Notes: a model not told the origin generated them from the letters alone. 64,000 nucleotides of DNA from a virus (IMGVR_UViG_3300033076_001146:5284-69283); one strand, 5' to 3'. Shown: positions 36,269 to 64,000, counted from the stretch's first letter. A program made the numbers and translations.

Positions 36269-36658
36269 ATGACATCAGAACAGTTAGACCTGATCCAATC
36301 CCACTACAAGCCGCCCTTTACCTACGATCCGCAAGGGCAAATGATTTTCGACAGTCTAAGCCGACTCGTGTTGGACGTGCGCGGCTGGGGCTGGATTCAG
36401 CATTTACACGACTCCGAGGCAATTCAAGACAGCTTTGGCAAATGGGTAGCAGAAGTGCTAACCCGCGAGATAAAGGCAATTTCAATCACACCTACTGCCC
36501 CGCCCTCGGCATCACCGGACGGCCGGCTTTCTTCTGGGCTTCCTTTATCTTCTGATCCTCATAAAACCGCGTCTGACGCAGCGGCGTGCCCATCAGGCCA
36601 TAGCCTGCCGTCTCAAGCGCCGTCATCGGCACCTTCTGGCGACCAAGCTGCATCGTAG
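36269..36658 (+). CDS. Hypothetical protein (3' end overlaps giant gene antisense)
   Basis: YKPPFTYDPQGQMIFD...LDVRGWG motif. Confidence 0.5.
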   Translation: MTSEQLDLIQSHYKPPFTYDPQGQMIFDSLSRLVLDVRGWGWIQHLHDSEAIQDSFGKWVAEVLTREIKAISITPTAPPSASPDGRLSSGLPLSSDPHKTASDAAACPSGHSLPSQAPSSAPSGDQAAS

Positions 36659-42600: not shown

Positions 42601-45600
42601 TGAATCTTGGCGGGGTCTTCATCGTGCAATCCATACTTTACGGTGATGTGTGACTCTGTTTCGCGTCCGTCTTCGGTCAAATCGGCATCGGGAATTTTCT
42701 CGCCCAAAGCTCGCATTTTTTCTGCTACCGCATCAGGCAAGTTGACTTGCGTGCTGGAGAATTTGCCCTGCTTGCCTTTTACGATGCTGACGCCCGTTTT
42801 ATTTTCAGGATTGGCTACAACAAAACGCCCGTCGGCTGTTTCGGCAATTATTGGCTTGCCTGAAATGGCCGGATTATCATGACGTACTTTTTGCTGTCCT
42901 GGCTGCGACACTTCCTCCGCCCGCACCTCGCCCGCCCTGCGCAGCGTGTTGCCCTCTTCGACAATGCGGCCCTGCTGTTTCAGTGCTTCGAGTGCGGGAT
43001 TGATGCGGCCACGGGTCAGCCCGCTTTCACGGATGAGGCTGTCGCGGGTGATGGTGCCGGTGTCGGGAATGAGTCCGTGGATGAAATCGGCATCGGGGTT
43101 GGATTTATTACTCGCGGCATTATCCTGAACCCTTTGCTGCTCGCGACTGACGCCTTTGGCAGTATCTGTTCGAGGATTGCCTGACTGGTCTGCTCCTGAT
43201 TGCGTCCGGCGAACATCCGGCGCAACGCGGTTCCCTGTCGAGCGTGCATCCGGTTGCACGCTGCCTGCACTTTGTTCTGGTCTTTCGGTATCCGACGCTT
43301 GAATGCTCTCATTGATCGCCTTTGCCCTTTCGATGTCCTGCGTATTTTGAATGGTCTGCTGATACCGCCGCCTGTCTTCGGCTCCCAATCGGGAAGCATT
43401 GCGGCGCATCCACGCATCCCACGCCCATTGCGGCACCTGTGTCAAAGATACCTCATCGGCATTGACTTTCATCATGCGCGCAAAGGTATTTTTGAAGGCT
43501 TGGCGTGTTTCGCCTGCGCTCGCGTCGGCATCCAGCCCCAATGCCCCTTTGACATTTGGCGACTCATAAAACGAAGTGATCCCCTTCTCGCCATCGGGCA
43601 CGGTGCTTCTGAATACCTGCTGCGCAAAACGGCCAAACGGGCCTTTCCCTTCGGTGCCGGTGGCGCGCGCCTCTTCGACCACACGCCCCTGGCGCACCAG
43701 ATTGCGTTGCTCGCGCGGGAAGACTGCAGACTTGTCGGACGGGCCAGCCGTGCGCAACGGACGGCGCGGGGCTGTTGGCGCGGGCGGACGGCGACGGAAC
43801 GGCAAGACGTCGGCGGATTGCGGTTGCGGTTCTGGCGCAGGCTTTGCGCCATATTCCCCAACTTCCGGCACGCGGTAATAATCCCGCACTTCCCCGCCTT
43901 CATATTCGCTGAACTGGCGGCGCGGCATCCGTTCGACATTCGACGGTCGCACGTTCGGGCGCATCGGCTGTGCTGGTGGCACACCACGACGAACCGCCGC
44001 TAAGGGTTGCTGCGGGATTTCTTCGACGGGCGGGGTTTGGGTTTCGGCGGCGGCGGAAGTTTCTTGCCCAAGAGGTTGCCTTTCAATGACGGGTTGACGT
44101 GGTTGCTGTGGCGGACGTTGGCCGTGTGGCGGTCGCGCCGCTCTTTGCCGGTCGGCAATTTCAGCCTGAATACCCTGCGCTTCGGTGCGTGTGATGCCCA
44201 GCCGGTCGCGGATTTCTGTCAATTGCGGCAGGCGCCCACGCTGCACGAATTCCTGAATGATCGCATCGGCATCCGTGGCGCGCGTGCTGATGTTTGCCTC
44301 AAAGCCAGTTTCCGGCGGCGCGGAGCGCGGTTCAAAAACCGGCGCATTGTCGGCGCTCGTCGGCATCTGCTGCGGGCTGGTGACGGGACGGGCAACCGGT
44401 TGCTGCATCCGGCGCTCGCTGGCCTGCTCAATCTCGCGCTTGGCTTTGGCACTGGCCGCGCTCGCGTTGATCTGCTTCGGATCGTATTCAATCAGATGCT
44501 CGACATCGCCCACCTTAACGACCGATTGCCGATAACCTGGCGTTGGGTCGTTGTTCCATTCGCTCTGATCAAGCACGACAAACGGCGCTTGCTTGCCTGT
44601 GCGTCCGGTCGGACTGGCGGGCTGTCCGTCAGTGGCGGGAGCTTCCGTGCGTGCGGCGCGTAACCCAGCAATGCGCGAAGTCGGCGCGACTGGCACAGTC
44701 GCGGGCTGTGTTGCATCCAAATTCGGCGAAATTTCTGGCGCGGCGATTTTGGATGACGGCGGGGCTTGCGCGCGCCGGGCGGCCCGGTCGGCCAATCCCT
44801 GTTGCGCGGCGTCGCTAATCCCAAACGCAGCACCGACGGCGGCGTCTTCTGCCAGCTTGTTCGGATCAATCTTGCCGGTCAGTAACGGCTGCGTCACCAA
44901 CGATTGCCCGACGTTGCCGGCTGCGCCAACACCCATTTCACCAGCGGTGCGCGCCAAGGTGCGCGGAATCGGGCGCATGGCCTGTGTGGCATTGTTGAGC
45001 ATCGGACGCGCGGCCCGCGTCAGCGCCATCGGCACGGCAGTGCTCGCCATATTGACGGCAGTGTCCAACGGTCGCTCAATGTCGCCCATTGCAGCCTGTG
45101 TGCCCAGCGCGGCGGGCAATCCGCCAACTGCGCCCAATGCCACGGCGGGCAAAGCATCGCCCACGGCACGGGTCACATTTCCGGCTGTCGTTTGCCGGGT
45201 GGCTGCGTCCGCCGCTTCCTGTGCGGCAACCTGCTGCAACTGATCGTAATTCAGCGCGTTCGGGTCGGTCAGATATTTGCGCGCGGCTTCTTCATAGGCT
45301 TTGCGCGCATTCGCTTTGACGGCTTCGGCATTGGCGTAAGAAAACCGCCCCAACTGCTGTTGGATGGCTTCCCGCGCGGCAGGATTCGACGTTGTGCCAG
45401 GTTCTTGCAGGTAATTTGCGACGTTGCCCGCGACATCCTGAATCCCTGTCACTAATCCGCCCGCCAACTGCGCGCCGGTCGCCGTCAACGGCGTCACGTC
45501 GCCCCGCACCAACCCTTGCCCGATGGTTTCAACACGCTGGCCGGTTTGCGCCAGTCCGGTCATCAGGCGTCCGGGGACGCGTTTGGCTTCTTCGTAAATC

Positions 45601-46403
45601 TGGCTCGTAACAGGTTTTTGCGCGAATTCTTCCGCCGCCTTGCGCTTGGCTTGGAGTTCTGGCGTTTCCGGCAACACTTGCTCGCGCTGCGCCATTCCCT
45701 GCTGCAACGTCTCAAAAGGCGACGTGCGCAGGCCTTGAATCTGCTTCGTCAGCGGACGGCGAACGTCCACACTCGGCATTGCGCTGATGCGCGGTCCCAT
45801 TGGTCTGGCAGGTTGTTGCGGCGCTTGCACAGGCCGCTTGGACGGCTGCGGCAGCATTTCGTTGGGAATGTCTGGCCCATACGCGCCCGGGTTTTGCTGG
45901 CTGGGGCGTGGCGTGTTGGATTTCCAGGCTTCGGCGCGCGGTTGCGCCTGTTGCTTCCATTGTTCAAACCGTCCGGCTGGCTGCGCAGTCTCGGCGGGAC
46001 CACCCACCACGTCGGCATAGTGCTGGGTTTCCGGGATATTGGGCACACCGCCAGCCTTCCGCACGCGACCGGGCCCAGCATTGTACGCCGCGGCGGCCAA
46101 GCGCCGGTCCCCGCCAAACTGGTCAAGCATCTGCTTGCTGTAGCGCACCCCACCTACGATGTTCTGATCCACGTCGTATGGGTCAACGCCTAAATCGCGC
46201 GCCGTGCCCGGCATCAACTGCATGGCACCGATCGCGCCCGCCTTGGACTTCTTGTGCCCAAGGATGACGTCCGGGTCGCCGCCAGTTTCCTGCTTGTGCT
46301 GGCGCGCGGCGTAATCTTCTGGCACGCCTTGATTGCGCGCCTCTTCACGGACACGCCGGTCAGCATACCCTGTCACCCAATTGCGGAAGCGTCCTTGCGG
46401 CAT
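36492..46403 (-). CDS. Giant polyvalent ejection-type virion protein: SLT, 2H phosphoesterase (Acb1-like), N6-adenine methyltransferase, LPD38-like C-terminus
   Basis: QETGG/GAMQLMP/AYNAGPG (about 46010-46350); HITVKY and PHATIAY (42310-42770); FFPTP/LEPSAG/NPPF (39558-40060). Confidence 0.85.
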   Translation of the reverse strand: MPQGRFRNWVTGYADRRVREEARNQGVPEDYAARQHKQETGGDPDVILGHKKSKAGAIGAMQLMPGTARDLGVDPYDVDQNIVGGVRYSKQMLDQFGGDRRLAAAAYNAGPGRVRKAGGVPNIPETQHYADVVGGPAETAQPAGRFEQWKQQAQPRAEAWKSNTPRPSQQNPGAYGPDIPNEMLPQPSKRPVQAPQQPARPMGPRISAMPSVDVRRPLTKQIQGLRTSPFETLQQGMAQREQVLPETPELQAKRKAAEEFAQKPVTSQIYEEAKRVPGRLMTGLAQTGQRVETIGQGLVRGDVTPLTATGAQLAGGLVTGIQDVAGNVANYLQEPGTTSNPAAREAIQQQLGRFSYANAEAVKANARKAYEEAARKYLTDPNALNYDQLQQVAAQEAADAATRQTTAGNVTRAVGDALPAVALGAVGGLPAALGTQAAMGDIERPLDTAVNMASTAVPMALTRAARPMLNNATQAMRPIPRTLARTAGEMGVGAAGNVGQSLVTQPLLTGKIDPNKLAEDAAVGAAFGISDAAQQGLADRAARRAQAPPSSKIAAPEISPNLDATQPATVPVAPTSRIAGLRAARTEAPATDGQPASPTGRTGKQAPFVVLDQSEWNNDPTPGYRQSVVKVGDVEHLIEYDPKQINASAASAKAKREIEQASERRMQQPVARPVTSPQQMPTSADNAPVFEPRSAPPETGFEANISTRATDADAIIQEFVQRGRLPQLTEIRDRLGITRTEAQGIQAEIADRQRAARPPHGQRPPQQPRQPVIERQPLGQETSAAAETQTPPVEEIPQQPLAAVRRGVPPAQPMRPNVRPSNVERMPRRQFSEYEGGEVRDYYRVPEVGEYGAKPAPEPQPQSADVLPFRRRPPAPTAPRRPLRTAGPSDKSAVFPREQRNLVRQGRVVEEARATGTEGKGPFGRFAQQVFRSTVPDGEKGITSFYESPNVKGALGLDADASAGETRQAFKNTFARMMKVNADEVSLTQVPQWAWDAWMRRNASRLGAEDRRRYQQTIQNTQDIERAKAINESIQASDTERPEQSAGSVQPDARSTGNRVAPDVRRTQSGADQSGNPRTDTAKGVSREQQRVQDNAASNKSNPDADFIHGLIPDTGTITRDSLIRESGLTRGRINPALEALKQQGRIVEEGNTLRRAGEVRAEEVSQPGQQKVRHDNPAISGKPIIAETADGRFVVANPENKTGVSIVKGKQGKFSSTQVNLPDAVAEKMRALGEKIPDADLTEDGRETESHITVKYGLHDEDPAKIQQILAGEPPVRVRLGKTSLFENEDADVVKVDVDSPDLQRLNKKIADAMPHTDTHPDYKPHATIAYVKPGTGKKYAGLTDLEGQEVTLDRLLFSSKNGVQTEIKLQGESSQSSPSKATQPAQPKGEGSVASAPRVNPAQTPARKEKVIVDRTRGGDMISKRSAEIRAKKMGPQWRAQEHPSEPGKYRVVRDLTPQEWAEEARRDAEYEAKSKPVAEASAQSVERARTNVEAHADLFDRIEKGQATAAEIKASFEALATNKEAIKAELSKLTKDGIFEKFPDLRWRYKNETKAEVVDAAFREMQSDYTLNQSFNYGMGDDSYTKGIRAVVEKHTDESLSQYAEKVKQAAAEREQKKKAALEGMEDPKTLEDFNRVIRAKAAEIGEGVTFQQVRMSLTPEQRAQYDELAATKSRDERRARADQQRTEVRAASQSMTGDVIETKHTKTGEPLFVVKAAERVERDVYNQWNATAKRLGGWYSSYRAAGAVPGFQFKTRANAEAFLEYLGGKVDKAKETVQARRDAMQDDKSQTAVERLREMADALDARADESLSVERKANTDRRARFAASAESAANASKAMAKTMRNIADAIEAGKAKFLDRVRQKVQVEMLQSFVHSGQGDYLRSKYPTYAEQEKHFGEPPTKEAADHATFPTYTAYRSDLAKLGRQLIEQEGTKKLGAAILKEADDVTDAYLKFAKENVHKVSTFSRKDGERAVFGSKATAEAAIARSGFKGQAIVLPFKRGQNLIILSPSAARERGIWAGDNDKRITLGNDIGDELVAKLKTLKRREIDVPWTFESAYDKRKRLAGMGIETPAELRAALREFIGLREQAKAPDKIKEMERAMIGRKNDGLDFFPTPASVADRMIEVADVKEGMAVLEPSAGMGHIADRLREAGVDPDVVEMASDRRELLEAKGHNLVGQDFLETQGQYDRIVMNPPFSNRRDIEHVRHAYDLLKPEGRLVAIMGEGSFFGSDKKATEFREWLESVGGTSEKLEPGSFLDPSLPVNTGVNARMVVIEKPAGAAPAQPQPVAEQVAPHLMTPAQYKAAGLGPANDAEVLKAARKGQPVNAEAVDTYRLKDSLPQGYRRQGDVYAPVQPVAEQAPPRGEVAKPRATDAELRQSLFEEGDYTEAKRRQVGLAEQARQFSPTSNEAAKELKQAQERLARAESGQVQMLKPELSEKIRVENAAEKEKIGKTGLTPTQEQYLRGKIKEAKPMLAEGRDVTIPVPGDGRFTLRGPQEARALESRLDRPKVTGRAPLKGLTAPRQTPLSRDFAWEDAGESSVRQAIVPFESVKPDVATNGNIATGKKFVTDGHLVIRAEGAKKLPPAMLKKNEDSKVYKSDEDLETHFADWNKQAKRPLKIEGVMYMGDQKTPYAFLTDAKNQVTAADAAYLRAIMDAHAPDEIAQAGKDNTGVLVFRKNGQPVAALMPMRTKNITQPGKEIGTKKQLEEMREVMGQKSTPDTRSSGLNIAQAYRELSAWAERRRLPDDAAHDRYLDKVVKTLDRYVSAAERQGIDLDADALFTRFEGYEAQLEAARKAKDGIAYRKIQQQIAQTFSGREQAKLTRDADARDTLRSPLSNLNYIGTYEKLGGAAGKAISEAFKDAQVELARNPQARNATLDNLAKTVKPYQQELRLAGKPQLANYIEAHLDAVRGGNEPWSGLANFLTKFNYYRVLAYNPRSAAVNWLQPFQTLWPHLTTREFAKVMADARRPEIRARLKEIAEKESGGQVEGIEKRGPWTLFGTVSDSNRIVGHLAGELMADKLGLTGQEKARMAADWAAKVEFDNGRFGAPPLFREPLARVLLQFKGYTVKNLERIWADAQRAPQGSETGKLARISKMVVSQVAVGGVRSISALSSIPGIIILGTLAKTLEDKLPPEDKHLANKIAEGVYFGAPALLEQDLSSSMMLLDAPFGKTPKEKALNAIGGPTVGLMAELWTQKENYDNAKTPEKRNNALYRAAKAVTPYTKTAETVAALAQGKRPTMQLGRQKVPMTALETAGYGLMGTPLRQTRFYEDQKIKEAQKKAGRPVMPRAGQ

Positions 46404-46407
46404 AGTT

Positions 46408-47829
46408 TTACCTTACGTCGTAACCATCGGCCCGTGCATCTTCCAGCGCCTTTTCAAAACTGACGCCGTTGTCTTTTGCGTATTGTTCGACCATTGCGCG
46501 GCTGATTGGCTTCAGCTTGCCGCCACTGGCGGGCATCGCCGGACGCGCAGACGACTTGCCGCCGACACGCACACCTGCTTTCCGTTTGATTTCCCCTTGA
46601 ATCCCGGAGCGAATCTTGCGGCGTTCGGCTTCTTCAATGGCCGCGACACGCTGGCGCACTTTGGCCTGCTCTTCCAGACTGGGCGGCTCGTTGGATTCGA
46701 CAAACGAGCCTTGCTGCGCATCCCAACGCTTTTTCGGGACAGGTTTTTGTGGCTCGTAGAGGATTTGTCTTTCGAGCGGGGAAAGCTGCGCATCCAGCAC
46801 GGCTTGCTTGCGGCCCTGCCAAGTGTCTTCCTCAATCTGTGCCGGGTTGCCATCTTCGGCCAAAACATCATCTTCGGCTTGGCGGCGCAATTCTCCCGTA
46901 GAGAGTTGACGATCTGCGCCCGGCTTGACATACGCTGGCCCGACTTCCCTGTTATTCACGTAGTCATACACCGTCGGCACACCATTGCGCATCACTGTCG
47001 TTACCGCCGGACGTGGCGGCGCAACGGGCGTTTGCGGCGCTTGGTAAACCTGCCTGCCGGTTGTGTCAATTACCGAATTATTGCGAGGGACGTTGTGAAA
47101 CACATCGCGCCGTTTGGCTGCTTCGGCTTGTTGGCGATTCTCTTCAATCTGCGCCTCTTGCCCGCGTACCTTCAGTCCGTACAATTCATCATCCCGCTGC
47201 ATCTGCTGATCCGCCAGCACGCGCCGCCCCGGTCCCATCGCAAACCGCGCCTGCGCCATCTGTTCCGGCGCAATCGTCTGCCCCAATGCACCACCCGCAA
47301 AGCCGCCAATCAACCCACCAAGGCCGCCTTGTCCGCCAGACATCGCCATCCCGTACAAGCCACCCTTCAACGCTTCCTTCCAGTCGCGTTTGCCGTGTTC
47401 GCCGACATATTCATTTTCTGCCGCCTTGTACGGCGTGGCGAACCGTGGGCGCGTGGCGATCGGACGTTCCAGCGCGGGCGCTTCTGTCGCGGGCGCATCA
47501 AGCGGCGGCATTACCTGACGCGGGCGCGTATTTACGGGCATCGCGGGCCGGTCGCTTGCGCCACCAGAGTACGAATCACGTAAATTGCCGCCCGGTTGAT
47601 AGTCCGGCATTACTGCGCGCGGACGGCTCGCCGGATTGGGCTGTCCGCTTATTCCCGGCGTCAGATACTCGCGCACCTGCTCCAACTCCGCCGGATTCAC
47701 ATCCGCGCCCGGCGGCATGGGCTGACGACGCGTCGGATTGATTTGGTCTTCGAGCGCGCCGATGCCACGCCGGACACCGCCGACGCCGCGACGAATGGGG
47801 TTAATCAGGAAATCAAGAGGGTTTGGCAT
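46408..47829 (-). CDS. Putative internal virion/ejection protein
   Basis: 473 aa, P/Q-rich with Gly-rich hydrophobic segment; directly upstream of giant gene. Confidence 0.55.
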   Translation of the reverse strand: MPNPLDFLINPIRRGVGGVRRGIGALEDQINPTRRQPMPPGADVNPAELEQVREYLTPGISGQPNPASRPRAVMPDYQPGGNLRDSYSGGASDRPAMPVNTRPRQVMPPLDAPATEAPALERPIATRPRFATPYKAAENEYVGEHGKRDWKEALKGGLYGMAMSGGQGGLGGLIGGFAGGALGQTIAPEQMAQARFAMGPGRRVLADQQMQRDDELYGLKVRGQEAQIEENRQQAEAAKRRDVFHNVPRNNSVIDTTGRQVYQAPQTPVAPPRPAVTTVMRNGVPTVYDYVNNREVGPAYVKPGADRQLSTGELRRQAEDDVLAEDGNPAQIEEDTWQGRKQAVLDAQLSPLERQILYEPQKPVPKKRWDAQQGSFVESNEPPSLEEQAKVRQRVAAIEEAERRKIRSGIQGEIKRKAGVRVGGKSSARPAMPASGGKLKPISRAMVEQYAKDNGVSFEKALEDARADGYDVR

Positions 47830-47844: not shown

Positions 47845-47931
47845 CTAGTCGCAGCCGAAGAATAAATACACGAGTCCCAGGAGGTTGAGCGCAATCAGAA
47901 GCAGGGGCGGCAATGGTGATAGGCAGCGCAT
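47845..47931 (-). CDS. 28-aa hydrophobic peptide
   Basis: MRCLSPLPPLLLIALNLLGLVYLFFGCD; TGATG overlap with fibre stop. Confidence 0.35.
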   Translation of the reverse strand: MRCLSPLPPLLLIALNLLGLVYLFFGCD

Positions 47932-49898
47932 CAATTTGCTATCCGCAAGCACCTGAACCCCGTGCCGCCACTATCTGCCGCGCCTCGCGTTACGCGCTTC
48001 AGACTCCCTGCCGTTACGTCCCATAATCGCAGCCGGGTATCGTCTGCCGTGCTACTAGGGTCTATCTCTAGTACCACCGTATCGCCTACGGTCAACTTAT
48101 GACTGCCGACACTGCCAGCATGATAAAACACACTCGCACCATCCCCTGAGTCACGCCAGATCCCAACGTCATTGGCCGTTCCGCCGCCGTTGCTGAATAC
48201 CACCCCAGTAATTGCGCTAACTGCGCCCGTTCCGGTTAGAGCGATTGATCCCAGCGATAGACCTGCGTCACTAATCGAAAGCCGCTCGACGCCAGCCGTG
48301 CGAAAGCTGAGCGATGAACCGCTGGACGTGTTGAAAACGATATTGCTGGACGAATCGCGGCCAATGAATACGTCATTTGTTGCCCCGCCATTGTCCGCGA
48401 AAATCAATCCGGCTGGCGTGGTGCTTGAGCCATCCCAGGTGTTTGAAATCGTGGCCGAGGACGAGAAGGTTTGCAGGCTCGAAAACGTCTGCGCCAAATT
48501 CGTGCCTGCAATTGTGTAGCTCGCGTCTTGCGGCGTAAGCGTGCGCGTTGTGCCAGTCGTGAGGCCGTCAACCTCAAAGGCCAGTAATTTTGTAGCGTCT
48601 GAGGAACCTTTGACCAGCGCAGTTGAATCCACGAACGGCTGAGACGAACCGGAAGGCGTGCGCCAACTGCCGCCGCTGTAGAAATAGAAATTATTATTGG
48701 TCGTGTCTACGTGAATCGGCGCGCGCCCTGTGTACGTGGTTGGTGTTCCGCTGGGCGCACCCGCTGAAGTAGACACGTAAACAAACCCATCAGTGGCATT
48801 TGTGGCAAGTGCCCCGCTGCCGGGAACGATATTCTTCAAGGCCGTTATCGTCAGCGCGTCGGCGTACGTATTGGCCGTGCTTGAACTACTGCCCGGCGTG
48901 GCAGTCTGAATCACTAGGCTCCCGCTGCCGCCTGTGCCTGTGCCGTTACCGGGTTTTAGTGTCAGGTTCACCCCAGCGTTATTCAATCCCGCCGTATAGC
49001 TCGCCCCGCGAATGGTGGAAGCGGCGGGCGCGGTGCCATCACCAGCCCCGACTAAAATGTTACCAGCCACAGCCAGCTTCTCGCGGATAGAGTTGGAGTC
49101 GTCCGCGTAACCTACCTGCAAGCCTGCGTTGCCGAATGAGCCACGATTTGTGCCCTGTGTGTAAAAGCTGACAAGATTAGTCGTGGTACTCCCGGTGATT
49201 CCCGGCCCGCTGCTAATTGCGCCAATCTGGTCGGATTGCAGCGTAAGCGTATCTGAGCCGTCCACGGAACTGGCGAGTTGCAGCGAAGCCCCTAGACTCG
49301 CATAAGGCGCAGGGTCGCCGCCCGCCAGTTTCAAAATTGCCAATTCACTGCTAGGTGTCGCCACACTGCCCACGAAAAAACGCATTTGCGTTGTAACATG
49401 GTCATTGGTGGGCACACTGGTCGTGTAGATGTCAATTTTCCCACTCGGCCAAAACTCGTCGCCATCGTAGCCTTGCCATTCAATTGCGCCCAACGAGCGC
49501 CCGGTCAGTACTACGGTCGGGCTGCCGCTTGTGCCATAGGCTTTGCGAAAGCGAAAATTTGCCGCGCTGGTGTCGCTGCCGTAATAGGTGGTTGCGGTTG
49601 TACGGGCGTCAATGCGTGCCAAAGGCGAGTCCGCAAAAGCGGTAGGACTTGAACGGTACGGGATAGTACCATTCGTGCTATTGATAGAAGCTCCCCCACT
49701 ACCCCCGCTACTTGTCCAAGTGCCAGAGGCGCAGACCCAGATCACACCAGTCGTCGTCAACTGCACTTCTTGCGCTTTACACGTGCCAGATGGGTCCGTG
49801 GCCGAGCCTTTAAGTTTATTGGCTGTCACGTTCACCGCCTGCCCGTAGGTAGGCAGGCCAAGGACCAGCAAAAGCACTAAAGTCTTGAGAGATTTCAT
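47931..49898 (-). CDS. Tail-fibre-like protein with N-terminal signal peptide
   Basis: G/S/T-rich beta repeats; MKSLKTLVLLLVLGLPTYG-Q. Confidence 0.7.
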   Translation of the reverse strand: MKSLKTLVLLLVLGLPTYGQAVNVTANKLKGSATDPSGTCKAQEVQLTTTGVIWVCASGTWTSSGGSGGASINSTNGTIPYRSSPTAFADSPLARIDARTTATTYYGSDTSAANFRFRKAYGTSGSPTVVLTGRSLGAIEWQGYDGDEFWPSGKIDIYTTSVPTNDHVTTQMRFFVGSVATPSSELAILKLAGGDPAPYASLGASLQLASSVDGSDTLTLQSDQIGAISSGPGITGSTTTNLVSFYTQGTNRGSFGNAGLQVGYADDSNSIREKLAVAGNILVGAGDGTAPAASTIRGASYTAGLNNAGVNLTLKPGNGTGTGGSGSLVIQTATPGSSSSTANTYADALTITALKNIVPGSGALATNATDGFVYVSTSAGAPSGTPTTYTGRAPIHVDTTNNNFYFYSGGSWRTPSGSSQPFVDSTALVKGSSDATKLLAFEVDGLTTGTTRTLTPQDASYTIAGTNLAQTFSSLQTFSSSATISNTWDGSSTTPAGLIFADNGGATNDVFIGRDSSSNIVFNTSSGSSLSFRTAGVERLSISDAGLSLGSIALTGTGAVSAITGVVFSNGGGTANDVGIWRDSGDGASVFYHAGSVGSHKLTVGDTVVLEIDPSSTADDTRLRLWDVTAGSLKRVTRGAADSGGTGFRCLRIAN

Positions 49899-49938
49899 CT
49901 GATTGACTCCGAAATAATGATGAGGAAGGAGAGGGAGA

Positions 49939-50355
49939 TTACTGCGCAGACTTCGGTTTAATCACCAACGTTTTGCCATCCGGCGCGACTGTAATCACAC
50001 AAGACGGGCAGGTATACTTGCTCTGCATCTTGGCCAGGAACGCTTCATAGGTCGCGCCGTCGCGCTGGTTACGCAGAAAGGCCGTTTCCAGATCGCTCCA
50101 CAATTGCGCCTTGGTCGCCACGTCTTTCGGTGCGGCAAGTTGCGCCGTCTCCACCAGTTTGTTCAACGCCGTCTGATTGTCAAGCAGGGGTTGCTGTACC
50201 GCCTGCCATGCTTTCACGTCCTCAGCGTCGTCAATCGTTTTTGCGGCTGGGGCGGATGGCTTCTTGTCTTCCACCTTCTTGCCGTCGTTCTTCGCCAAGT
50301 CCTGTCCCAGAATAAAGGGACAAATTAGCATCATGATCAAAAATGCTTTCTTCAA
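49939..50355 (-). CDS. Signal-peptide protein, helical (possible assembly chaperone)
   Basis: MKKAFLIMMLICPFILG-Q. Confidence 0.6.
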   Translation of the reverse strand: MKKAFLIMMLICPFILGQDLAKNDGKKVEDKKPSAPAAKTIDDAEDVKAWQAVQQPLLDNQTALNKLVETAQLAAPKDVATKAQLWSDLETAFLRNQRDGATYEAFLAKMQSKYTCPSCVITVAPDGKTLVIKPKSAQ

Positions 50356-51002
50356 AACGAAACTCCTTGTTGTTTGGTTGAAACATTGTGCGCCTGTCCG
50401 ATCACAGTCCGGCGCGGTGAAGTGCCTGCCGCTGGCGCTTCAGTGTAGGTGATAATGATCTGCACGTAATCAATATACAGATAGCTGTCGCCGCTGACGC
50501 CCGATGTGGTGCCGACCGAAATGGCGCAGCCCGCGTCGGCGTCGTTCCAGTCAATCGCGGTGGACTCTCCGGCCCAGGTGTCTGCCGATCCGCCAAAGCT
50601 GGATGTCGTGAACGTTGTAAAAAGCCCGCCCGTGGCTTTATTCGCACTGCCAATAGTGCCACTGGCGTTGACCAGTTTGATTGCGTTCCAGGCAAAACCG
50701 CCTGATCCGGCCGGAATCCCGGCAGCATTGACCTGCAATTGAACGCCATTGATCGTTGCGCCGACAGGCAAAGCAAAGCCGAAGTTTGTCAACTTCAGGT
50801 AATGCGTGTATTCACTGCCTGTGGTGGCAATGACCGAAGCGTAAGAGCCTGTCCCGCTACCCGTCGCGTTGGACGGGTCCGTCCACGTCAGCGTGCCGAT
50901 GCTGCTGTCATCTACTGCCGTGCCTGCGTATTTGCTGGACGTGGCGAAATAGGCGGGGCTGGCACTCAGCCAGAAGGCCAGAAACCAATTTAGAAAAAGC
51001 AT
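50352..51002 (-). CDS. Beta-sandwich fibre-associated protein with signal-like N-terminus
   Basis: MLFLNWFLAFWLSASPA; coupled by overlaps to both neighbours. Confidence 0.55.
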   Translation of the reverse strand: MLFLNWFLAFWLSASPAYFATSSKYAGTAVDDSSIGTLTWTDPSNATGSGTGSYASVIATTGSEYTHYLKLTNFGFALPVGATINGVQLQVNAAGIPAGSGGFAWNAIKLVNASGTIGSANKATGGLFTTFTTSSFGGSADTWAGESTAIDWNDADAGCAISVGTTSGVSGDSYLYIDYVQIIITYTEAPAAGTSPRRTVIGQAHNVSTKQQGVSF

Positions 51003-54000
51003 CAGAGTGCGCGCCTCCAGGTTAATTCGACGCCAATCAGCCGTGCCGTGCCTGCCATCGTGTCGCCTGCTTGACTCAATCGCCGCGCCACTTTGACGTG
51101 CATCAATTCACCCGCCGCACAGCCTGTAACCGTGATGGAACTAATTGCGGCGTCATTGGTCTGGTTGGTCGTGCCCTTGGTCGTGTCGGTCACATCGCTA
51201 TAGCTGTTAAATGACGGATCATTCGTTTCACCGTCGGCTACGCACGCCGTCGCTACGCCCCAGATCACATCGCCGCTCGTGGTCGCAGACAGCCACTTAA
51301 AGTTAATGTCTACGTTCCCTGTCCAATCTGAAGGCAAACGCAAGGTGCGCTGCATCGTCAGATCGGTCGCGCCGTCGGCAAAGTCCATCACCCCCTGCAA
51401 CACATTCGTGCCACTGATGGCTGCTGCGGCAGGCGCATTCGAGCTTGGCAAATCCCAATTGGCCGCCGCTGTGCCTGCGTTATTTGCGGCGGCATCTATC
51501 CAAACCTTGATGGGAATGGTGAGCGTGTTGCCCGTGCCTTCGGCGTCAAGTGTTTTATTGGTGAGCGTGTCGGTTGTCGCCTTGCCGACCAGCGTGTCTG
51601 TGGCGGCAGGCAGTGTCAGCGTGCCAGAGGCCGCCGCCGCAGCCGTGATGGTGGTTGATCCTGACGACGAGCCGTAAAACGCCAGCCCGGAGGATGTCAG
51701 GCGTAAGTGTTCTACCGATCCCAAGAGAAAGCGCATCGAGCCGCCGCTTTGCCCTTTGATGATGGCTGCTGCGCCATCCATATCCAACACCGCCGCGCCC
51801 GCCACGATGCCCGCTGAAGGCGAAAAGCCGCTTGAATACGCGGCGATGGCAATGGCTGGGCCGCTTGCGTCACTGACTGCGCTAATCCGGGCTTGCGCCG
51901 CATTGCCGCTGCTGGCATTCGTCACCACCAGCGGCACGGAACTGTTGAGCGATTTGCTGATGTCCAGCCGTCCGGTTGCTGTGACATAGGTAAAATCTGC
52001 GCTGCTGGTGATTGCCCCGCTTGAGCCAAACGCAAGTTCTGCCGCGCCAACGGTGCCTGTTAAGAGCGTGCCCGTAACAGATGGCAGCGTTGCCACAACG
52101 TTACTTGCAAGCGAAGACGGAGCCAACAGCGACGCATAATTACTGCCATTGTCCGTGTCTTCAAACAATCGCAGGTCTGTCGGGCCGGAAGCCGTCGCCA
52201 AAAGCCGGTAAACGCCCGTACCCTTTACCTGGAAATCAAGCCCGACATTGGTGTCGCCGCCCGAAGCGGTGAAAGTTGGATTCGCGCCGGTTGCGGCATT
52301 GGCAAACGTGACCTCGTTGACTGCGCTCGTTACCGTATCAAAGATCAGTAATTCGTTGCCGTTTGCGTCAGCAATAAAGCCCAGGTCGGCAAACTTCGGC
52401 GCGGTCAGTGTCTTGCTAGCCAGCGTAGCCGTGCCATCCGCTGTCACCAAACCACCAGAGGCGTTGTTGAGTGTGACGCCCAGCGCCGTCAGTACGTTCG
52501 TGCCGGGCACAGTTACTGACAACGTGCCATCGCCGCCGCTGGTTGTGACCAAGCCGTTACTGGTTAGGCTGCCCAGCTTCTTATTCGTCAGCGACTCACT
52601 ACCCGCCAGCGTGGCAAGCGTGCCAGAAGTCGGCAACGTGACCGACGAGCCGCCTGCACCATTGAATGTCACGCCCCCGTTGGTTGTCGTGAGCGACGAA
52701 GCAAGCACGAGATTGCCGCCAAGATTGATCGTCTTGGCAGCGTCGTTTAGCGTGATAGTCAGCGCTTTGTTGCCGGTCAGATTCTCCGTGTTGATAATTT
52801 GCAGATCAAACGCGCCTGTACCCGTCGAGCGTATGCCTAGTGAGGTCAAGGCGTCTGCCGTTCCGCCGTTGATATCGGGCGCGGTCAATACCTTATTCGT
52901 CAGCGTCTGACTGTCTGAAGTGCCAACAATCGTGCCGGATGGTGCCGTGACTGCGGTAAAAGCGCTGGTCCCATTGCCGATCAGCACGCCGGTCAACGTG
53001 CCTGCACCTGTTCCACCGCGACTGACCGCCAGTGTGCCTGTCCAGCCCGCCGTAACGCGCAAATTGGTTGAGGATGTATTCGACCACGCCAAGGTAACGT
53101 TGGTGTCGTCCGCGTCGTCAATCGTCAAGTCTGCCGCTGTCAGCGTGTTCAGCGAAGCAATGCCCGAACCGCCGCCGCTAGTTTGATCTGTGCCGCAAGA
53201 GAAAGTCTGCGTGGAATTGTCGTAAAGCAGCTTGGAGGTTGTCGCGTTTGAACAAGACGGCAACGTTTTCAATGCGCCTGTATTTGTGCCTGTGCCAACC
53301 AAGACTTCATTGGCTGCCCAAGTGCCCTGCCCCGTTCCGCCGCGCGTCAATCCCAGCGTGCCCGAAATCACCGCCGCTGCACTGATGCCGCCTGTACCAA
53401 CGGCTGTTACAACGCCAGCGGTAGACATTGCCAGCCCGTGCGAACCGCTCAGGATTTGCAAGGGTGTGGCTGCGTCAGATGAAATCGTGAACGTGGTCGA
53501 ACTAAATCCCAGCTTGCCATAAGCCGTGTTTGTATTGTCGTTGCGGACGTACAACGAGGACGGCCCAACGTGAACTTCTGCCCAGCGCAAGGCCGACGTG
53601 CCCAGGCTGTACATATTGTCGGCGCTCGGGTTGATCTGTGTAGTGGTCAACGTAGACGAAAGCGTTTTGGCCCCGGCAATTGTTTGACTGCCAGTCGTGA
53701 TCAAACCACGCGCCGACCCGGAAGCATCGGGGATATTGAGCGTAATCGTGCCACTGCTGGTAATCGGCGAACCGCTGACGTTGACATCTGAGCCGGACGT
53801 GCCCGCTGCCAAGGCCACACTGGTAACAGAACCGCCCCCGCCGCCTCCTCCGCCCGCTGTGGTCTGCGATGTGCCATCCGGGAAAATGATCGAAGTGCCG
53901 ACGTAGATATTGCGTGGCCGATTCCCTGTTGCGCCAAGGTCTTTGGTGTTAGTCGTGCCGTAAAGGATGTGCCCTGTTGTTACGATGTCGCTGCCAAACT

Positions 54001-56668
54001 TGTACAACGGGCCGGACGCGCTCAGTGTCCCGTTGGTGCTTGACCACGACGGGAAATAATCCAAATTCGGGCCACTCTCAAATTTTGCCCGTTTGTCGAA
54101 GCTCAGTGTCCCGCCATCCGCCACCATGACATCGGCATTCGTCGGCGAAGCTTCGGCAGTGGCCGCAGGTAGAGTGAACGTCAGGTTGGCCGAGGCGGAG
54201 TTCGACGGCTTGAGCGTCGTCTTGTAGCCGCTGTTGTTGTACAAGGCCAGATTCAGTCCCGACGGCAACCGGGCCGCTTCGGTAAAGACGCCCGCCCGCC
54301 CAAACGTGATCGAAACCCCGTCAATGTAATAAATGCCTGCCGCTGCACTTGCGCTGTTCACGAACGCCGCTTGCACCTGCGTGGCGTTTGAAGGTACGGG
54401 CGAAGTCAGCCGCACCGGCACCCACTGATCCGTAGCCGTGATGGCCGCGATGCCGTAAGCCGATGTCCCGCCGTTATACCAGACCTGTAAAGCGACTACA
54501 GGCTGTGTCGCCTGCCCTGATGCCACATACACCCAACCCGTGATGGTGATGGACTGGCCGAGGACACGCGGCAATTCTTCCGCAGGCAGATTGACCAGCG
54601 TGGTTGCCGTCCCGCCAGACACCTTGACCGCATAATCACCATACAACTTGCGCGTATCACCCAGCCCTGTGCCGGTCTGCGTCAACGTGCCGGATGAGAC
54701 GCCCCATTCGGTCGGGTTACTGCCCGCCCACACTTCCGCCCCGCCATTGCGTAATAAGTTGTGGCTTGGCGCTGCGCCCGCTGGACCAGTTGGCGAAGCG
54801 TTTGCGTTGCCTGCGTTGCGGAGCTGGCCTGTGTACGTGCTTTCTGTGCCGTTGTCGGCGAAGGTGCCCGTGCCGGATAGATTCCAGGTTAGGTTGCTAA
54901 AACGATTGCGCTGACTGGCTGAATCCACCGAGAGGTTGTTAATAGCGAGATTTTCAACGGTGATGTCGTCGGCATTGACGAATTCAAGGTTATTGCCGAA
55001 TGAACCCGCACCAATGAAGCCGGACGCCGAGTTTTCAATCTTGATGTTGGCTTTGGTAAAGGTACTGGAAAGGTCTTCGACGTGGACATTGGAGACGCTG
55101 AAATAGTTGGCTCCCTTGATGTGGATGCCGTAGGTCATCGTCGCGCTTTCAATCGTGCCGCCGACAATCCAGTTGTTCGTGGTGCCGGTTGTGCCCGTCG
55201 CGCCGTCAATGAAGATACCCTTCCCCGCCCCAGGCTCAATGACGCAGTTCTTGATGAGATTGGCGTTACTGGGATAAGTCGAACTACCCTTAAACAGCAT
55301 GCCACCGTCCGGCGTGCCATAGGTGTACGGGAATGGTGTCGAATTGCTGACAACTACCTGTTCAAAGGTGTTAATCAAGCAGCCTTCGCACACAAAGCCA
55401 TAACCGCCAGAGGGCGTGCCCGTGCCGATGTACACGTTGCGCACGTCGCCGCGCACGAAGTTTTTCAATAGTAAGCCGTTCTGGGCGCTGTTGGTCGTGC
55501 CCACGATGGCAAGATTTTCAATGCGCGCCGTTTCAATCAGCGTCGAGCCGCCCCGGTCAAAGACGACGCAATCCGTACTGATGCCGACATTGCAGGTAAT
55601 GGCCGAGCCAATGCCGTCGCCGATCAGATTGATGCGCTTGTTGACGAGTACCTGGCTGTTTGTCTTGTAATTGCCATAGGGCAGATACAACGTGTCGCCG
55701 TCGCTCATCGCTGCAATGCAGGAACTAAACGCGCTGGCGTTATTGGTCGAACCGTCCCCCACGCCGCCACAATCGCGGGCAAAGTTGACGGCTTCAATTA
55801 CGCCGGTCAGGTTCGTGCCCGCCGTTGCGCTCAACGTGCCTCCGCTCAACGATAGTCCACTGCCGATGTTTAGGCAGCTTTGCGCGCGGCCCGTCGCGGC
55901 GAAGTAAATCGCCTGATTGGCTGTGCAGCTTGGCAACAGCGAATTTAGCGCACTGGTCGTAACGTAAGTTTCAGGGAGTTGTACCTGTGGCGCAGCATTG
56001 TAGGTGCAGATGTCTTTCCACGATGTTGGGGTAGTCGTCGGGATTCTGAATTGCGTGACGCTGTTGCAGCTATAACTTTGCGCCGCTCCGCCCACTAAGG
56101 CGCCATCAGTCCGATGAAAGAACATTGAGATACGCGCCTGATTGCTGGGCGTGCCGTCCGTCGTCGCGGGCAAGACCATCTCTGGCAGGTATAACGTATC
56201 AATCCCGCTCGCGTTGATCACACTGGCAGCGTAGCGCCGAAATGCGGGCCCGCCATTGTTCGGCGCACCAGGCAACACCGGATTGTTTGAACCGTTCGGG
56301 TAAAAAGAGATGGACGAATAAAGGCGAGCTTCGACGTAGGGATAGAAAATGACTGTGGTGGCACCTGACGAGCCGACATAGTTGCTGGTCAGCGTCAGCG
56401 CCGAAGTCGAAGAGACATAGCTGACATAGTAAAACGTGCCATTGATCGAAATGCGGAATCCGCCGAGTCCGACCCATTGCGTGCGGAACGCGGCGGAACT
56501 GGTCACGCTGGCTGAGCCGTTTGTCACCGTCGCACTCAGGCTGACTTGCTGCCCAAGGTTGGCAGGCTGAAAACCTTGAATTTGATGTGCCGCGATGACA
56601 ACATCGGAGGCCATCACGGGCGCAGCTAACGCCAGCGCAATCAAAAGTGAGAGGATAAACTGCTTCAT
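51002..56668 (-). CDS. 1888-aa tailspike/fibre with pectin-lyase-like beta-helix and CBM-like domain, N-terminal signal peptide
   Basis: DCGGVGDGSTNNASAF...GDTLYLPYGNY beta-helix start (about 55.8 kb); NLLRNGG CBM-like (about 54.75 kb); QTLTNK repeats; ATG 56668 MKQFILSLLIALALAAPVMA. Confidence 0.8.
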   Translation of the reverse strand: MKQFILSLLIALALAAPVMASDVVIAAHQIQGFQPANLGQQVSLSATVTNGSASVTSSAAFRTQWVGLGGFRISINGTFYYVSYVSSTSALTLTSNYVGSSGATTVIFYPYVEARLYSSISFYPNGSNNPVLPGAPNNGGPAFRRYAASVINASGIDTLYLPEMVLPATTDGTPSNQARISMFFHRTDGALVGGAAQSYSCNSVTQFRIPTTTPTSWKDICTYNAAPQVQLPETYVTTSALNSLLPSCTANQAIYFAATGRAQSCLNIGSGLSLSGGTLSATAGTNLTGVIEAVNFARDCGGVGDGSTNNASAFSSCIAAMSDGDTLYLPYGNYKTNSQVLVNKRINLIGDGIGSAITCNVGISTDCVVFDRGGSTLIETARIENLAIVGTTNSAQNGLLLKNFVRGDVRNVYIGTGTPSGGYGFVCEGCLINTFEQVVVSNSTPFPYTYGTPDGGMLFKGSSTYPSNANLIKNCVIEPGAGKGIFIDGATGTTGTTNNWIVGGTIESATMTYGIHIKGANYFSVSNVHVEDLSSTFTKANIKIENSASGFIGAGSFGNNLEFVNADDITVENLAINNLSVDSASQRNRFSNLTWNLSGTGTFADNGTESTYTGQLRNAGNANASPTGPAGAAPSHNLLRNGGAEVWAGSNPTEWGVSSGTLTQTGTGLGDTRKLYGDYAVKVSGGTATTLVNLPAEELPRVLGQSITITGWVYVASGQATQPVVALQVWYNGGTSAYGIAAITATDQWVPVRLTSPVPSNATQVQAAFVNSASAAAGIYYIDGVSITFGRAGVFTEAARLPSGLNLALYNNSGYKTTLKPSNSASANLTFTLPAATAEASPTNADVMVADGGTLSFDKRAKFESGPNLDYFPSWSSTNGTLSASGPLYKFGSDIVTTGHILYGTTNTKDLGATGNRPRNIYVGTSIIFPDGTSQTTAGGGGGGGGSVTSVALAAGTSGSDVNVSGSPITSSGTITLNIPDASGSARGLITTGSQTIAGAKTLSSTLTTTQINPSADNMYSLGTSALRWAEVHVGPSSLYVRNDNTNTAYGKLGFSSTTFTISSDAATPLQILSGSHGLAMSTAGVVTAVGTGGISAAAVISGTLGLTRGGTGQGTWAANEVLVGTGTNTGALKTLPSCSNATTSKLLYDNSTQTFSCGTDQTSGGGSGIASLNTLTAADLTIDDADDTNVTLAWSNTSSTNLRVTAGWTGTLAVSRGGTGAGTLTGVLIGNGTSAFTAVTAPSGTIVGTSDSQTLTNKVLTAPDINGGTADALTSLGIRSTGTGAFDLQIINTENLTGNKALTITLNDAAKTINLGGNLVLASSLTTTNGGVTFNGAGGSSVTLPTSGTLATLAGSESLTNKKLGSLTSNGLVTTSGGDGTLSVTVPGTNVLTALGVTLNNASGGLVTADGTATLASKTLTAPKFADLGFIADANGNELLIFDTVTSAVNEVTFANAATGANPTFTASGGDTNVGLDFQVKGTGVYRLLATASGPTDLRLFEDTDNGSNYASLLAPSSLASNVVATLPSVTGTLLTGTVGAAELAFGSSGAITSSADFTYVTATGRLDISKSLNSSVPLVVTNASSGNAAQARISAVSDASGPAIAIAAYSSGFSPSAGIVAGAAVLDMDGAAAIIKGQSGGSMRFLLGSVEHLRLTSSGLAFYGSSSGSTTITAAAAASGTLTLPAATDTLVGKATTDTLTNKTLDAEGTGNTLTIPIKVWIDAAANNAGTAAANWDLPSSNAPAAAAISGTNVLQGVMDFADGATDLTMQRTLRLPSDWTGNVDINFKWLSATTSGDVIWGVATACVADGETNDPSFNSYSDVTDTTKGTTNQTNDAAISSITVTGCAAGELMHVKVARRLSQAGDTMAGTARLIGVELTWRRAL

Positions 56669-56686
56669 ATTTGGTAGAATTGGGTT

Positions 56687-56875
56687 ATGAATTGGGATAA
56701 GTTTTTCTTTTTTAGTTTTGGTTTTCTGAGCAGTGCTTGGCTGTACACTTTTGCAAAAATAAGCGAAACAAATGACAAACGTTACGCTGTCGTGCTGGCG
56801 ATGCAAACTGTCTGGCTCATTTTTATGACGTATGTGGCCGCTAGGAAAACCGCCCAACCAAAGGACACGCAATGA
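56687..56875 (+). CDS. Small two-helix membrane protein
   Basis: 62 aa, two hydrophobic segments. Confidence 0.45.
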   Translation: MNWDKFFFFSFGFLSSAWLYTFAKISETNDKRYAVVLAMQTVWLIFMTYVAARKTAQPKDTQ

Positions 56876-57049
56876 ACATAGACGACTTGAGAGTTTATCT
56901 ACTGGCTCGCTACGAAACACTTACGCGCGACTTGACGCAGATACAAGACCTTACGGAACGGCTGGCCATGCTGGCTAGAATCAACGAAGTAGCGGACTTG
57001 GTACGCTTACTTGATGTCAAAACACCCGCCCAACCAAAGGACACGCAAT
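56850..57049 (+). repeat. 24-bp direct repeat CCGCCCAACCAAAGGACACGCAAT at gene junctions
   Basis: Identical copies at 56850-56873 and 57026-57049. Confidence 0.9.
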
Positions 57050-57050
57050 A
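56872..57050 (+). CDS. Small hypothetical protein between repeats (end approximate)
   Basis: MNIDDLRVYLLARY...PAQPKDTQ, AAAGGA RBS inside repeat. Confidence 0.5.
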
Positions 57051-57263
57051 ATGACAAACGGAACCAGGCTTACCGACATCTTTCCTGCCGGCATAATTGC
57101 CGCCTTCAATCCTGCTGGCGAATGCGTTGCTGTCGAGTCAGTCACAGATGCTAAGAGTGGGATTGTTTGCGGCAGCGAAGCTAAAACACGCGCCCAATCC
57201 CAAAATGCCCCTGAAAGCTCCACACATTCACCTTCCCCGCCAACGGCCCCGTCGGTTGTATAA
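57051..57263 (+). CDS. Hypothetical protein
   Basis: ATG follows second repeat/RBS. Confidence 0.45.
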   Translation: MTNGTRLTDIFPAGIIAAFNPAGECVAVESVTDAKSGIVCGSEAKTRAQSQNAPESSTHSPSPPTAPSVV

Positions 57264-57810
57264 ACCGCGTATTCACGCCCGCCAAACCCGCGCGGAAGCG
57301 CCAGCGCGTGTCATTCAGCGGTAGATAGAATTCCCCGCCAAACTCATCGGCATTCACCCGGTTCTGCGTCTGTCCTTCGGGGAAGAAGTGCCGCCAATAC
57401 CCTACAAACCGCTGATCAATCACGACGCCTGCGCCGGCTGTCCAGTTTGTTGCGCTCTTGGTGTATTGGCTGGTCGTCTGGTGTACGCCGGACACGCCGA
57501 CCGTCGCGAACGGCACTACCGGCACCGTCGCCTGATCCGCGAAATAGACGCGACTCTCGACGCGACCGCGCCAGGCCGAGCCGGAACCGTCACCCAGATA
57601 CAGCTTAGGTTCGTGTTGCCACTGCCCTTCGGCAACCACGGCGAAAAAGTCTTGCACTGGCAAGACTAGATCGAAGCGCAGCCCCAGCCCCGCCCCGTTG
57701 CCCGTGCCTTCGGATTTGGAATAGACGACGCCGATCCCGGCTTGGCGCTCTTGTCCGAGCACGGCAACGCTGGCAATCAACAGGATTGCGAGAAGAAGTA
57801 AGTTTTTCAT
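57181..57810 (-). CDS. Outer-membrane beta-barrel protein
   Basis: Signal peptide, alternating amphipathic strands, C-terminal GHFGIGRVF beta-signal. Confidence 0.75.
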   Translation of the reverse strand: MKNLLLLAILLIASVAVLGQERQAGIGVVYSKSEGTGNGAGLGLRFDLVLPVQDFFAVVAEGQWQHEPKLYLGDGSGSAWRGRVESRVYFADQATVPVVPFATVGVSGVHQTTSQYTKSATNWTAGAGVVIDQRFVGYWRHFFPEGQTQNRVNADEFGGEFYLPLNDTRWRFRAGLAGVNTRFIQPTGPLAGKVNVWSFQGHFGIGRVF

Positions 57811-58130
57811 TGGATTGTGAAGGAAAAGGGATAGTAGGGAGAAGACTCAAGTTTTACTCGGAGCAAGCACTTGTTGAGATATTGAGTCGCCTTCTTTGAG
57901 CCGTGATACACCATCGCGTGCATATTTCGACGCACACGGCTTGCGCTACACTTTTGCGCCAATCGCTCCGATACCCAGGACTGCCCGTCGGGCTTGAGAT
58001 ACGCTATCTCAGCGCCTGCCACTCCCAGCGTCAACAGCTTGAGCTCTACTCGCCCTATTGATCCCTGCTCCTGCGCGTGGCTCACGCCGGCAACCAGTAG
58101 AATTGCAATCAAAAGTGATAGTTGTTTCAT
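57807..58130 (-). CDS. Secreted protein
   Basis: MKQLSLLIAILLVAGVSHA-Q; two Cys. Confidence 0.6.
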   Translation of the reverse strand: MKQLSLLIAILLVAGVSHAQEQGSIGRVELKLLTLGVAGAEIAYLKPDGQSWVSERLAQKCSASRVRRNMHAMVYHGSKKATQYLNKCLLRVKLESSPYYPFSFTIQ

Positions 58131-60095: not shown

Positions 60096-60109
60096 TGAAC
60101 TTCCCTTCT

Positions 60110-63944: not shown

Positions 63945-64000
63945 GGTATGGACAAGGTGATAGCGATAATCGAAGATCGCAAAATTGCGCTAGACAAGTT

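Follow-up and report, generated by a model that had tools for sequence, protein, structure and literature searches.

The stretch of DNA analysed here (hereafter the window) comprises 64,000 nucleotides (nt), namely bases 5284-69283 of one 69,283-bp virus record, IMGVR_UViG_3300033076_001146, and the positions given below are those of the window unless stated otherwise. At 47845-58130 on the minus strand lies a module of seven genes (Table 1), in which a tailspike/fibre-type protein of 1888 amino acids (aa; hereafter the spike), a 655-aa tail fibre and several smaller proteins carry N-terminal leaders resembling signals of the general secretory (Sec) pathway. An earlier note, made from the sequence alone, had described six co-oriented signal-bearing genes in this region, and all six were indeed found there on the same strand. 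The translational coupling that it proposed is visible at four junctions, where ATGA joins the 107- and 209-aa genes, TGATG the 1888- and 216-aa genes, TTGA the 216- and 138-aa genes, and a second TGATG the 655-aa gene and a 28-aa open reading frame (ORF). The TTG start of the 138-aa gene overlaps the preceding stop, and an identical TTG/stop overlap with the same leader is present in a related locus, L002. The 28-aa membrane peptide of the earlier note was also located and is hydrophobic; it is without a counterpart in L002, and whether it is coding is uncertain. The spike gene through the gene for a giant 3303-aa protein form one gap-free late operon, in which the 473-aa gene has a GAGG ribosome-binding site and starts 15 nt past the stop of the 28-aa peptide, and the giant gene follows 4 nt after the 473-aa gene. 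The sole break in the module is a 512-nt stretch between the genes for the 209-aa outer-membrane beta-barrel (hereafter the barrel) and the spike. Consensus scans around the module gave no clear promoter or terminator, and searches of Pfam, PHROGs and NCBIfam returned nothing usable for any module protein. Searches of cultured phages with megablast and tblastn matched nothing beyond short fibre modules and revealed no relatives of the module.

Table 1 Genes of the leader module and other late features of the window
Feature	Position	Strand	Remarks
107-aa small protein	57807..58130	-	classical leader, predicted cleavage after SHA, Gln at +1; Cys 61 and 88
209-aa outer-membrane beta-barrel	57181..57810	-	leader, Gln at +1; C-terminal Phe
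1888-aa tailspike/fibre	51002..56668	-	
216-aa partner protein	50352..51002	-	uncharged hydrophobic leader-like N-terminus
138-aa small protein	49939..50355	-	leader with Gly, then Gln at +1; TTG start; C-terminal CxxC
655-aa mosaic tail fibre	47931..49898	-	leader with Gly, then Gln at +1
28-aa hydrophobic peptide	47845..47931	-	start overlaps fibre stop (TGATG)
473-aa Cys-free protein	46408..47829	-	next in operon after 28-aa peptide
3303-aa polyvalent protein	36492..46403	-	SLT, 2H phosphoesterase and methyltransferase domains; last gene of leader-module operon; Cys-free
124-aa ORF	59793-60167	-	Tat (twin-arginine) signal-like motif from internal Met; adjoins 251-aa protein and muramidase
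255-aa ORF	62825-63592	-	Peptidase_S74 intramolecular-chaperone domain; unusually short carrier of S74

Sec-type leaders are concentrated in the module and conserved in relatives

Leaders were scored with a crude rule for Sec signals cleaved by signal peptidase I (SPI), which demands a basic n-region, an uncharged hydrophobic core and small residues at -3/-1, and which is a heuristic, not SignalP. This rule passes 6 of the 85 ORFs of the genome, five of them in the module, the sixth being a doubtful 55-aa ORF; leader-positive genes thereby make up 5/7 of the module versus 1/78 of the other ORFs (Fisher p 3.8e-6). The five leaders regarded as classical in the earlier note each pass, and the sixth, that of the 216-aa protein, lacks the basic n-region, as had been noticed, and has a hydrophobic core and an SPA site. 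Twin-arginine (RR) motifs are absent from all six leaders, and the separate 124-aa ORF is the only one with a Tat-like motif (Table 1). No Por_Secre_tail or TIGR04183-type match to the type IX secretion system (T9SS) was obtained in Pfam or NCBIfam, which divergent domains could escape, and no other outer-membrane export signal was found in these databases either.

Homologues were found to begin at the same Met as the module proteins. The 14 spike N-domain sequences compared (the window, L002 and 12 database proteins of 1088-2938 aa) all begin with M-K/R, a hydrophobic core and AxA, followed mostly by TDV, with hydrophobic maxima of 2.6-3.8 throughout, and their pairwise identity is 31% over the leader versus 48% over the next 100 residues. 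No homologue shares the longer frame that opens upstream of the spike start (1972/1934 aa), and a leaderless start at Met19 (-2) was rejected, this Met being present in only 1 of the 13 other spike sequences (P0140, from L016). Among 97 relatives of the fibre, 33 are leader-bearing, nearly all (32/33) with a leader ending in a small residue and then Gln, and the others have ordinary leaderless fibre N-termini. The barrel family likewise has a leader, an Ala-Gln cleavage site and a C-terminal aromatic residue: a small residue is followed by Gln in 21 of 26 aligned sequences (query included), and an aromatic residue is among the last three in 18. In the spike set, and also in the barrel family and the fibre relatives, conservation begins at the mature N-terminus while the leader sequence drifts. 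The same-Met starts, the drift of sequence under a preserved n/h/c architecture and the cleavage motifs therefore mark the leaders as real features, supporting that, as judged from sequence, they behave as genuine cleavable Sec signals. Real export of the module proteins appears highly probable.

The spike is a tailspike/fibre-type protein with conserved cysteines

The spike consists of a leader (residues 1-20), an N-terminal anchor-type domain (~21-280), a pectate-lyase-type beta-helix from ~293, a long shaft and a conserved C-terminal tip. Residues 23-278 share 38-76% identity with the 12 database relatives. All 14 sequences retain C201, C221, C248 and C265, and further cysteines occur in close pairs, which fits folding outside the cytoplasm. 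In total the spike has 15 cysteines; the 473-aa, 3303-aa and scaffold-position proteins have none.

Spike homologues carry PF12708, PF13229 and PF26209 (Pect-lyase_RHGA_epim, Beta_helix and Phage_phiTE_241_C), and the spike of the window itself has no Pfam match. An AlphaFold2 (AF2) model of residues 1-380, with a predicted local distance difference test score (pLDDT) of 74, displays the leader helix, beta domains and the start of the beta-helix, and the top BFVD matches of this fragment are pectate-lyase and tail-spike proteins. Within the model, residues 292-380 superpose on tailspike depolymerases (Z 6-7), and residues 40-111 on a small barrel frequent in phage tail proteins (Z 7-8). Moreover, profile comparison relates residues 45-103 to residues 253-309 of a leaderless 664-aa tail protein (E 0.002, 36% identity), the very stretch of the latter that matches tail-fibre PHROGs. 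A Foldseek search of the PDB with the N-terminal model gave nothing below E 1e-3, and phmmer with the spike against PDB sequences gave no match. The assignment of the spike as a tailspike/fibre-type protein is supported.

The fibre and its small partners

The N-terminal part of the fibre (residues 1-94) is 65-72% identical in four relatives from residue 1, and the downstream parts differ; Cys40 and Cys56 are kept in the L002 relative (l426). Residues 349-413 and 410-490 are modules that also occur in fibres without a leader, some of them annotated as tail fibres in cultured phages. Polyubiquitin repeats, to which phmmer against PDB sequences pointed in the fibre, were rejected as spurious matches. 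In agreement with the earlier note, neither the spike nor the fibre has an S74 domain (Pfam), which is confined to the separate 255-aa ORF.

Most of the family to which the 216-aa protein belongs is viral (Atlas neighbours 82-92% viral), and scans of genome contigs and viral contigs with it returned distant matches only. Distant members of the family begin directly at a conserved GPNxPGT...VGT..W motif, and near members have a hydrophobic leader before this motif. At the four loci where the family bears a leader (the window, L002, L021 and L022), the neighbouring fibre-like proteins are leader-bearing in every case, versus none of the four where the family is leaderless (L008, L019, L020 and L023), a co-variation of 4/4 vs 0/4 in a small sample (Fisher p 0.03). 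Such co-variation is what would be expected if interacting partners had moved jointly to the same compartment. The 138-aa protein is a candidate periplasmic helper. In L015 and L016 its slot is occupied by small leader- or lipobox-bearing coiled-coil proteins, and its CxxC is found in the window and L002 only and not in these counterparts.

Leader-bearing fibres in related and unrelated phages

L002 carries the same module, with identities of 64% for the barrel, ~40% for the N- and C-termini of the spike, 83% for the 216-aa protein and 72% for the fibre N-terminus. In L015 and L016, whose tail proteins are 33-37% identical, a leader-bearing spike comes directly after the tail genes and is followed by relatives of the 473-aa protein and by giant SLT proteins in the matching slot, so that the spike-473-giant order is kept. 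One and the same tail-operon slot holds a 706-aa leader-bearing fibre in L016 (L016:2079-4199) versus a 993-aa leaderless fibre in L015 (L015:1156-4137), and nothing but an 86-residue module (55% identity) is common to the two; fibres with and without a leader seem exchangeable at this locus. The closest relative of the spike (76%) is in L017, where lysis genes, the spike and a second leader-bearing pectate-lyase-type protein occur and there is no barrel. Among the late genes of this contig, which is the closest relative of the window phage, there is an insertion of an IS605-family element (OrfB/TnpB and Y1 transposase; L017:2340-4012).

Leader-bearing fibres are also present outside this group. 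In the unrelated siphovirus contigs L010-L014 and L018, a leader-bearing fibre gene lies right after tape-measure and hub-like genes, overlapping the hub-like stop. In the SU10-like L022, four leader-bearing genes are located between the capsid and adaptor/nozzle genes and are the sole fibre candidates there. In addition, gp085-gp087 of Cellulophaga phage phi18:3 (NC_021794) and gp091-gp094 of phi10:1 (NC_021802), the latter including a 'pectate lyase' and a 'tail fiber protein', have a classical leader followed by Gln. These proteins are annotated in the records as structural from experimental tandem mass spectrometry (MS/MS) proteomics, and the records are silent on leaders; the portal, capsid, tape-measure-region and inner proteins of both phages are leaderless. 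As in the window, the leader-bearing block ends the tail module near the lysis genes, whereas the Cellulophaga proteins have no significant sequence similarity to those of the window and the host belongs to Bacteroidota.

The barrel as a probable variable accessory

The AF2 model of the barrel (pLDDT 93) has 10 strands, and Foldseek matched it at probability 1.0 to OmpW, NspA, OpcA (template modelling (TM) score 0.56), Pla and Ail, with OmpX also listed. Its relatives number 34 among 1.8 billion representatives, a metagenome scan returned nothing, and it has no match in Pfam (including Ail_Lom or any outer membrane protein (OMP) family), PHROGs or NCBIfam; the barrel is OMP-like in its features, yet outside every named family. 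It is present only in the window and L002 and absent from L015, L016 and L017, which retain the leader-bearing spike. For the adjacent 107-aa protein, no relatives and no Pfam, PHROG or NCBIfam match were found. The two look like a variable, moron-like accessory in a position comparable to that of lambda lom.

The 512-nt stretch that separates the barrel from the spike contains two plus-strand ORFs of 59 and 70 aa (56872-57263), the second of which overlaps the barrel 3' end. Both have an identical 24-nt sequence, containing an AAAGGA ribosome-binding site, ahead of the ATG, and the two may be a small toxin-antitoxin or regulatory pair. A small opposite-strand ORF also lies between the barrel and the spike in L002.

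Late-gene context and host

The record encodes small and large terminase subunits, a major head protein, a DnaB helicase, an HNH nuclease, a C5 methylase, a tyrosine integrase on the opposite strand and a muramidase endolysin, and therefore represents a temperate tailed phage. An exact 77-nt repeat links genome positions 753-829 to 69207-69283 (window 63924-64000), the last 77 nt of the record. It looks like a k=77 assembly overlap at which the circle closes at ~68.45 kb, in which case genome bases 1-752 are probably a spur. With the circle closed, the minus-strand late genes become contiguous: the genes for the 664-aa tail protein and for proteins of 139 and 127 aa are followed by the 255-aa S74 gene and the lysis genes, and then by 158- and 176-aa genes, the leader module, and the 473- and 3303-aa genes. 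The 473-aa protein is a probable ejection or internal virion protein. The 664-aa and 255-aa proteins are both fibre-type and leaderless. The 255-aa ORF fuses the S74 domain to a 148-aa family that is seen between the tail genes and the spike in L015 and L016.

Near the muramidase gene, upstream of the module, lies a gene for a 251-aa membrane-anchored coiled-coil protein, a putative spanin; its presence together with the muramidase fits a diderm host. The host is probably diderm, because the muramidase, the putative spanin and a barrel of the type inserted by the beta-barrel assembly machinery (BAM) are all encoded. The Gln at +1 of the leaders recalls the Q-rule of Bacteroidetes (PMC5837995). 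The genome has a GC content of 57% and Shine-Dalgarno use of 24%, and neither the D[ST][AILVMT] glycosylation sequon nor the TAnnTTTG promoter motif of Bacteroidota is enriched, leaving a Bacteroidota host unsupported by these two tests. The nearest terminases include that of a Tunturiibacter (Acidobacteriota) phage, at only 30% identity.

A proposed extracytoplasmic route to the virion

We propose that the spike, the fibre and the 216- and 138-aa proteins are receptor-binding/depolymerase gear made late with cleavable Sec/SPI signals. These proteins would pass through the inner membrane in unfolded form and be freed of the leader, and their folding and trimerisation, with disulfides, would take place in the periplasm, while capsids and tail cores would be assembled in the cytoplasm. 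After breach of the inner membrane by the holin and removal of the wall by the muramidase, both pools could mix inside the closed outer membrane or just after its rupture, and docking of the spikes on the tail via their conserved N-terminal domain would complete assembly, as with P22 tailspikes. Cleavage of the surface glycan of their own host by exported spikes, already in the period before lysis, may be a second benefit. To this whole chain, from Sec export and oxidative folding of receptor-binding proteins to their joining particles after the inner-membrane breach, we assign a probability of about 0.5. That the module proteins associate with virions, taken by itself, is more likely than not. 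A broader version is put forward more tentatively, at somewhat less than even odds: in several unrelated lineages (SU10-like phages, siphoviruses and the podovirus-like group that has giant ejection proteins), the addition of Sec leaders would have shifted the whole receptor-binding module, helpers included, to the periplasm, where it would fold oxidatively, to be attached to cytoplasmic particles only once the holin has opened the inner membrane.

The earlier note had offered two outcomes for such fibres, maturation in the periplasm with joining of virions at lysis, or display on the lysogen surface via the barrel. Its Sec-like leaders, its tailspike/fibre-type proteins and its cysteines fitting extracytoplasmic folding have stood, and the first outcome gains indirect support from the late-operon coupling, the synteny, the leader-bearing genes that are sole fibre candidates elsewhere and the MS/MS annotation of the Cellulophaga proteins; lysogen display is poorly supported, as set out below. 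The same note regarded the system as its best candidate for an undescribed one. In the papers open to full-text search, Sec leaders on the fibres of tailed phages were nowhere described, whereas the leader-bearing feature itself is present in public phage records.

Several points weigh against the proposed route. For tailed phages there is, to our knowledge, no documented case of Sec-exported parts being added, and parts that dock only after lysis run the risk of being diluted. With the leaderless 664-aa and S74-bearing 255-aa proteins also encoded, the virion may do without the exported set. Sequence features are the basis from which export, cleavage and disulfides are deduced, and the structural matches of the spike N-domain are middling (Z 7-8, TM ~0.2). 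Finally, the leader-bearing Cellulophaga proteins are analogues rather than homologues, and even in purified particles an MS signal may stem from envelope material that co-purifies or from a cytoplasmic pool with an uncleaved leader.

Alternative explanations

The alternative that survives best, although we consider it unlikely, is that the module proteins are exported and never enter virions, acting as free periplasmic or released depolymerases or binders that trim or mask host glycan. The effects would be easier release of progeny and a block to superinfection, and the virion would bind its host through the leaderless 664-aa and S74 proteins. The real-looking leaders, the pectate-lyase-type domain and the leaderless fibre-type genes in the same genome are all compatible with such a role, for which there is a bacterial precedent in WceF of Pantoea stewartii, a trimeric glycan enzyme of tailspike fold that has an N-terminal export signal and trims exopolysaccharide (PMC7949094). 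WceF differs in being encoded by a bacterial gene and exported folded by a Tat signal, whereas the leaders of the window have no twin arginine. However, a conserved anchor-type N-domain, swapped distal parts and a very long shaft suit a particle-attached fibre and not a free enzyme; L010-L014, L018 and L022 offer the virion no candidate fibre without a leader; and leader-bearing analogues are annotated from MS/MS as virion proteins in two cultured phages.

Much less probable is that the hydrophobic N-termini are not export signals, being start-codon artefacts or helices with a particle- or membrane-penetration role, and that the proteins are cytoplasmic. Some database gene calls do begin downstream or upstream of the leader (P0055 and P0133), and the spike Met at -2 could yield a leaderless isoform, but the common start and the n/h/c architecture are kept in 14/14 spikes and 32/33 leader-bearing fibres, the Met at -2 recurs in just 1/13 other spikes, starts overlap upstream stops in several loci, and the adjoining barrel is an unambiguous Sec/BAM client with a similar leader.

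Least probable of all is a lysogenic-conversion adhesin, in which a prophage-expressed barrel would anchor and display the fibres on the lysogen surface: although a phage-encoded outer-membrane barrel lies beside fibre genes as lom does in lambda, and the barrel and 107-aa genes are set apart from the spike by the 512-nt gap with its antisense pair, the spike-to-fibre genes are late genes because of their gap-free translational coupling to the 473- and 3303-aa ejection-type genes, L015, L016 and L017 have a leader-bearing spike and no barrel, Pfam and NCBIfam gave no match to a T9SS C-terminal domain or to another outer-membrane export signal, and we know of no way in which a 10-strand barrel could pass a trimeric 1888-aa fibre.

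Comparison with known systems

Assembly of tailed phages is wholly cytoplasmic in textbooks, and canonical tail fibres fold in the cytoplasm without signal peptides. The tailspike of P22 is added as the last assembly step, and this addition is possible in vitro. The tailspikes of P22/Sf6 and Vi1/CBA120 resemble the spike described here in having an N-terminal particle-binding module, a parallel beta-helix depolymerase and exchangeable distal parts, and the AF2 fragment of the spike matches such proteins; they are leaderless and fold in the cytoplasm, whereas the window spike has a cleavable leader before its N-module and four invariant cysteines. The receptor-binding protein pIII (g3p) of filamentous phages does have a Sec signal peptide and undergoes disulfide folding in the periplasm before virion entry, but it belongs to an inovirus that is extruded at the membrane, where pIII is membrane-anchored until assembly, and that has no capsid, terminase or tail. 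The Lom/Ail family of lambda is similar to the barrel in being phage-encoded, leader-bearing and adjacent to fibre genes, and differs in having 8 strands versus the 10 of the barrel model, the barrel forming a rare family of its own. In Porphyromonas gingivalis phages, predicted signal-peptide cleavage exposes Gln according to the Q-rule (PMC10367356), as on the leaders of the window. This is the nearest published description that the searches brought up, but the Q-rule leaders there belong to capsid proteins, to spanins and to the products of five genes whose function is unknown, and are read as those of host-envelope modifiers; tail fibres are unmentioned (PMC10367356).

Implications for phage assembly

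The phage of the window provides an instance of leader-bearing fibres outside obvious Bacteroidota. If many environmental phages have Sec clients as their receptor-binding proteins, the last step of their assembly would be extracytoplasmic and tied to the timing of lysis, and their fibres could carry disulfides and blocked N-termini (pyroglutamate) that would toughen them for soil and water. The host Sec machinery, signal peptidase and Dsb would then become phage dependency factors, and the periplasm should be the target compartment when such depolymerases are produced recombinantly. Pipelines that bin signal-peptide proteins as 'non-structural' or as host-modifying morons would, if this is true, mislabel receptor-binding proteins, and the joint presence or absence of leaders on fibres and on their small partner would offer a simple genomic marker for the trait.

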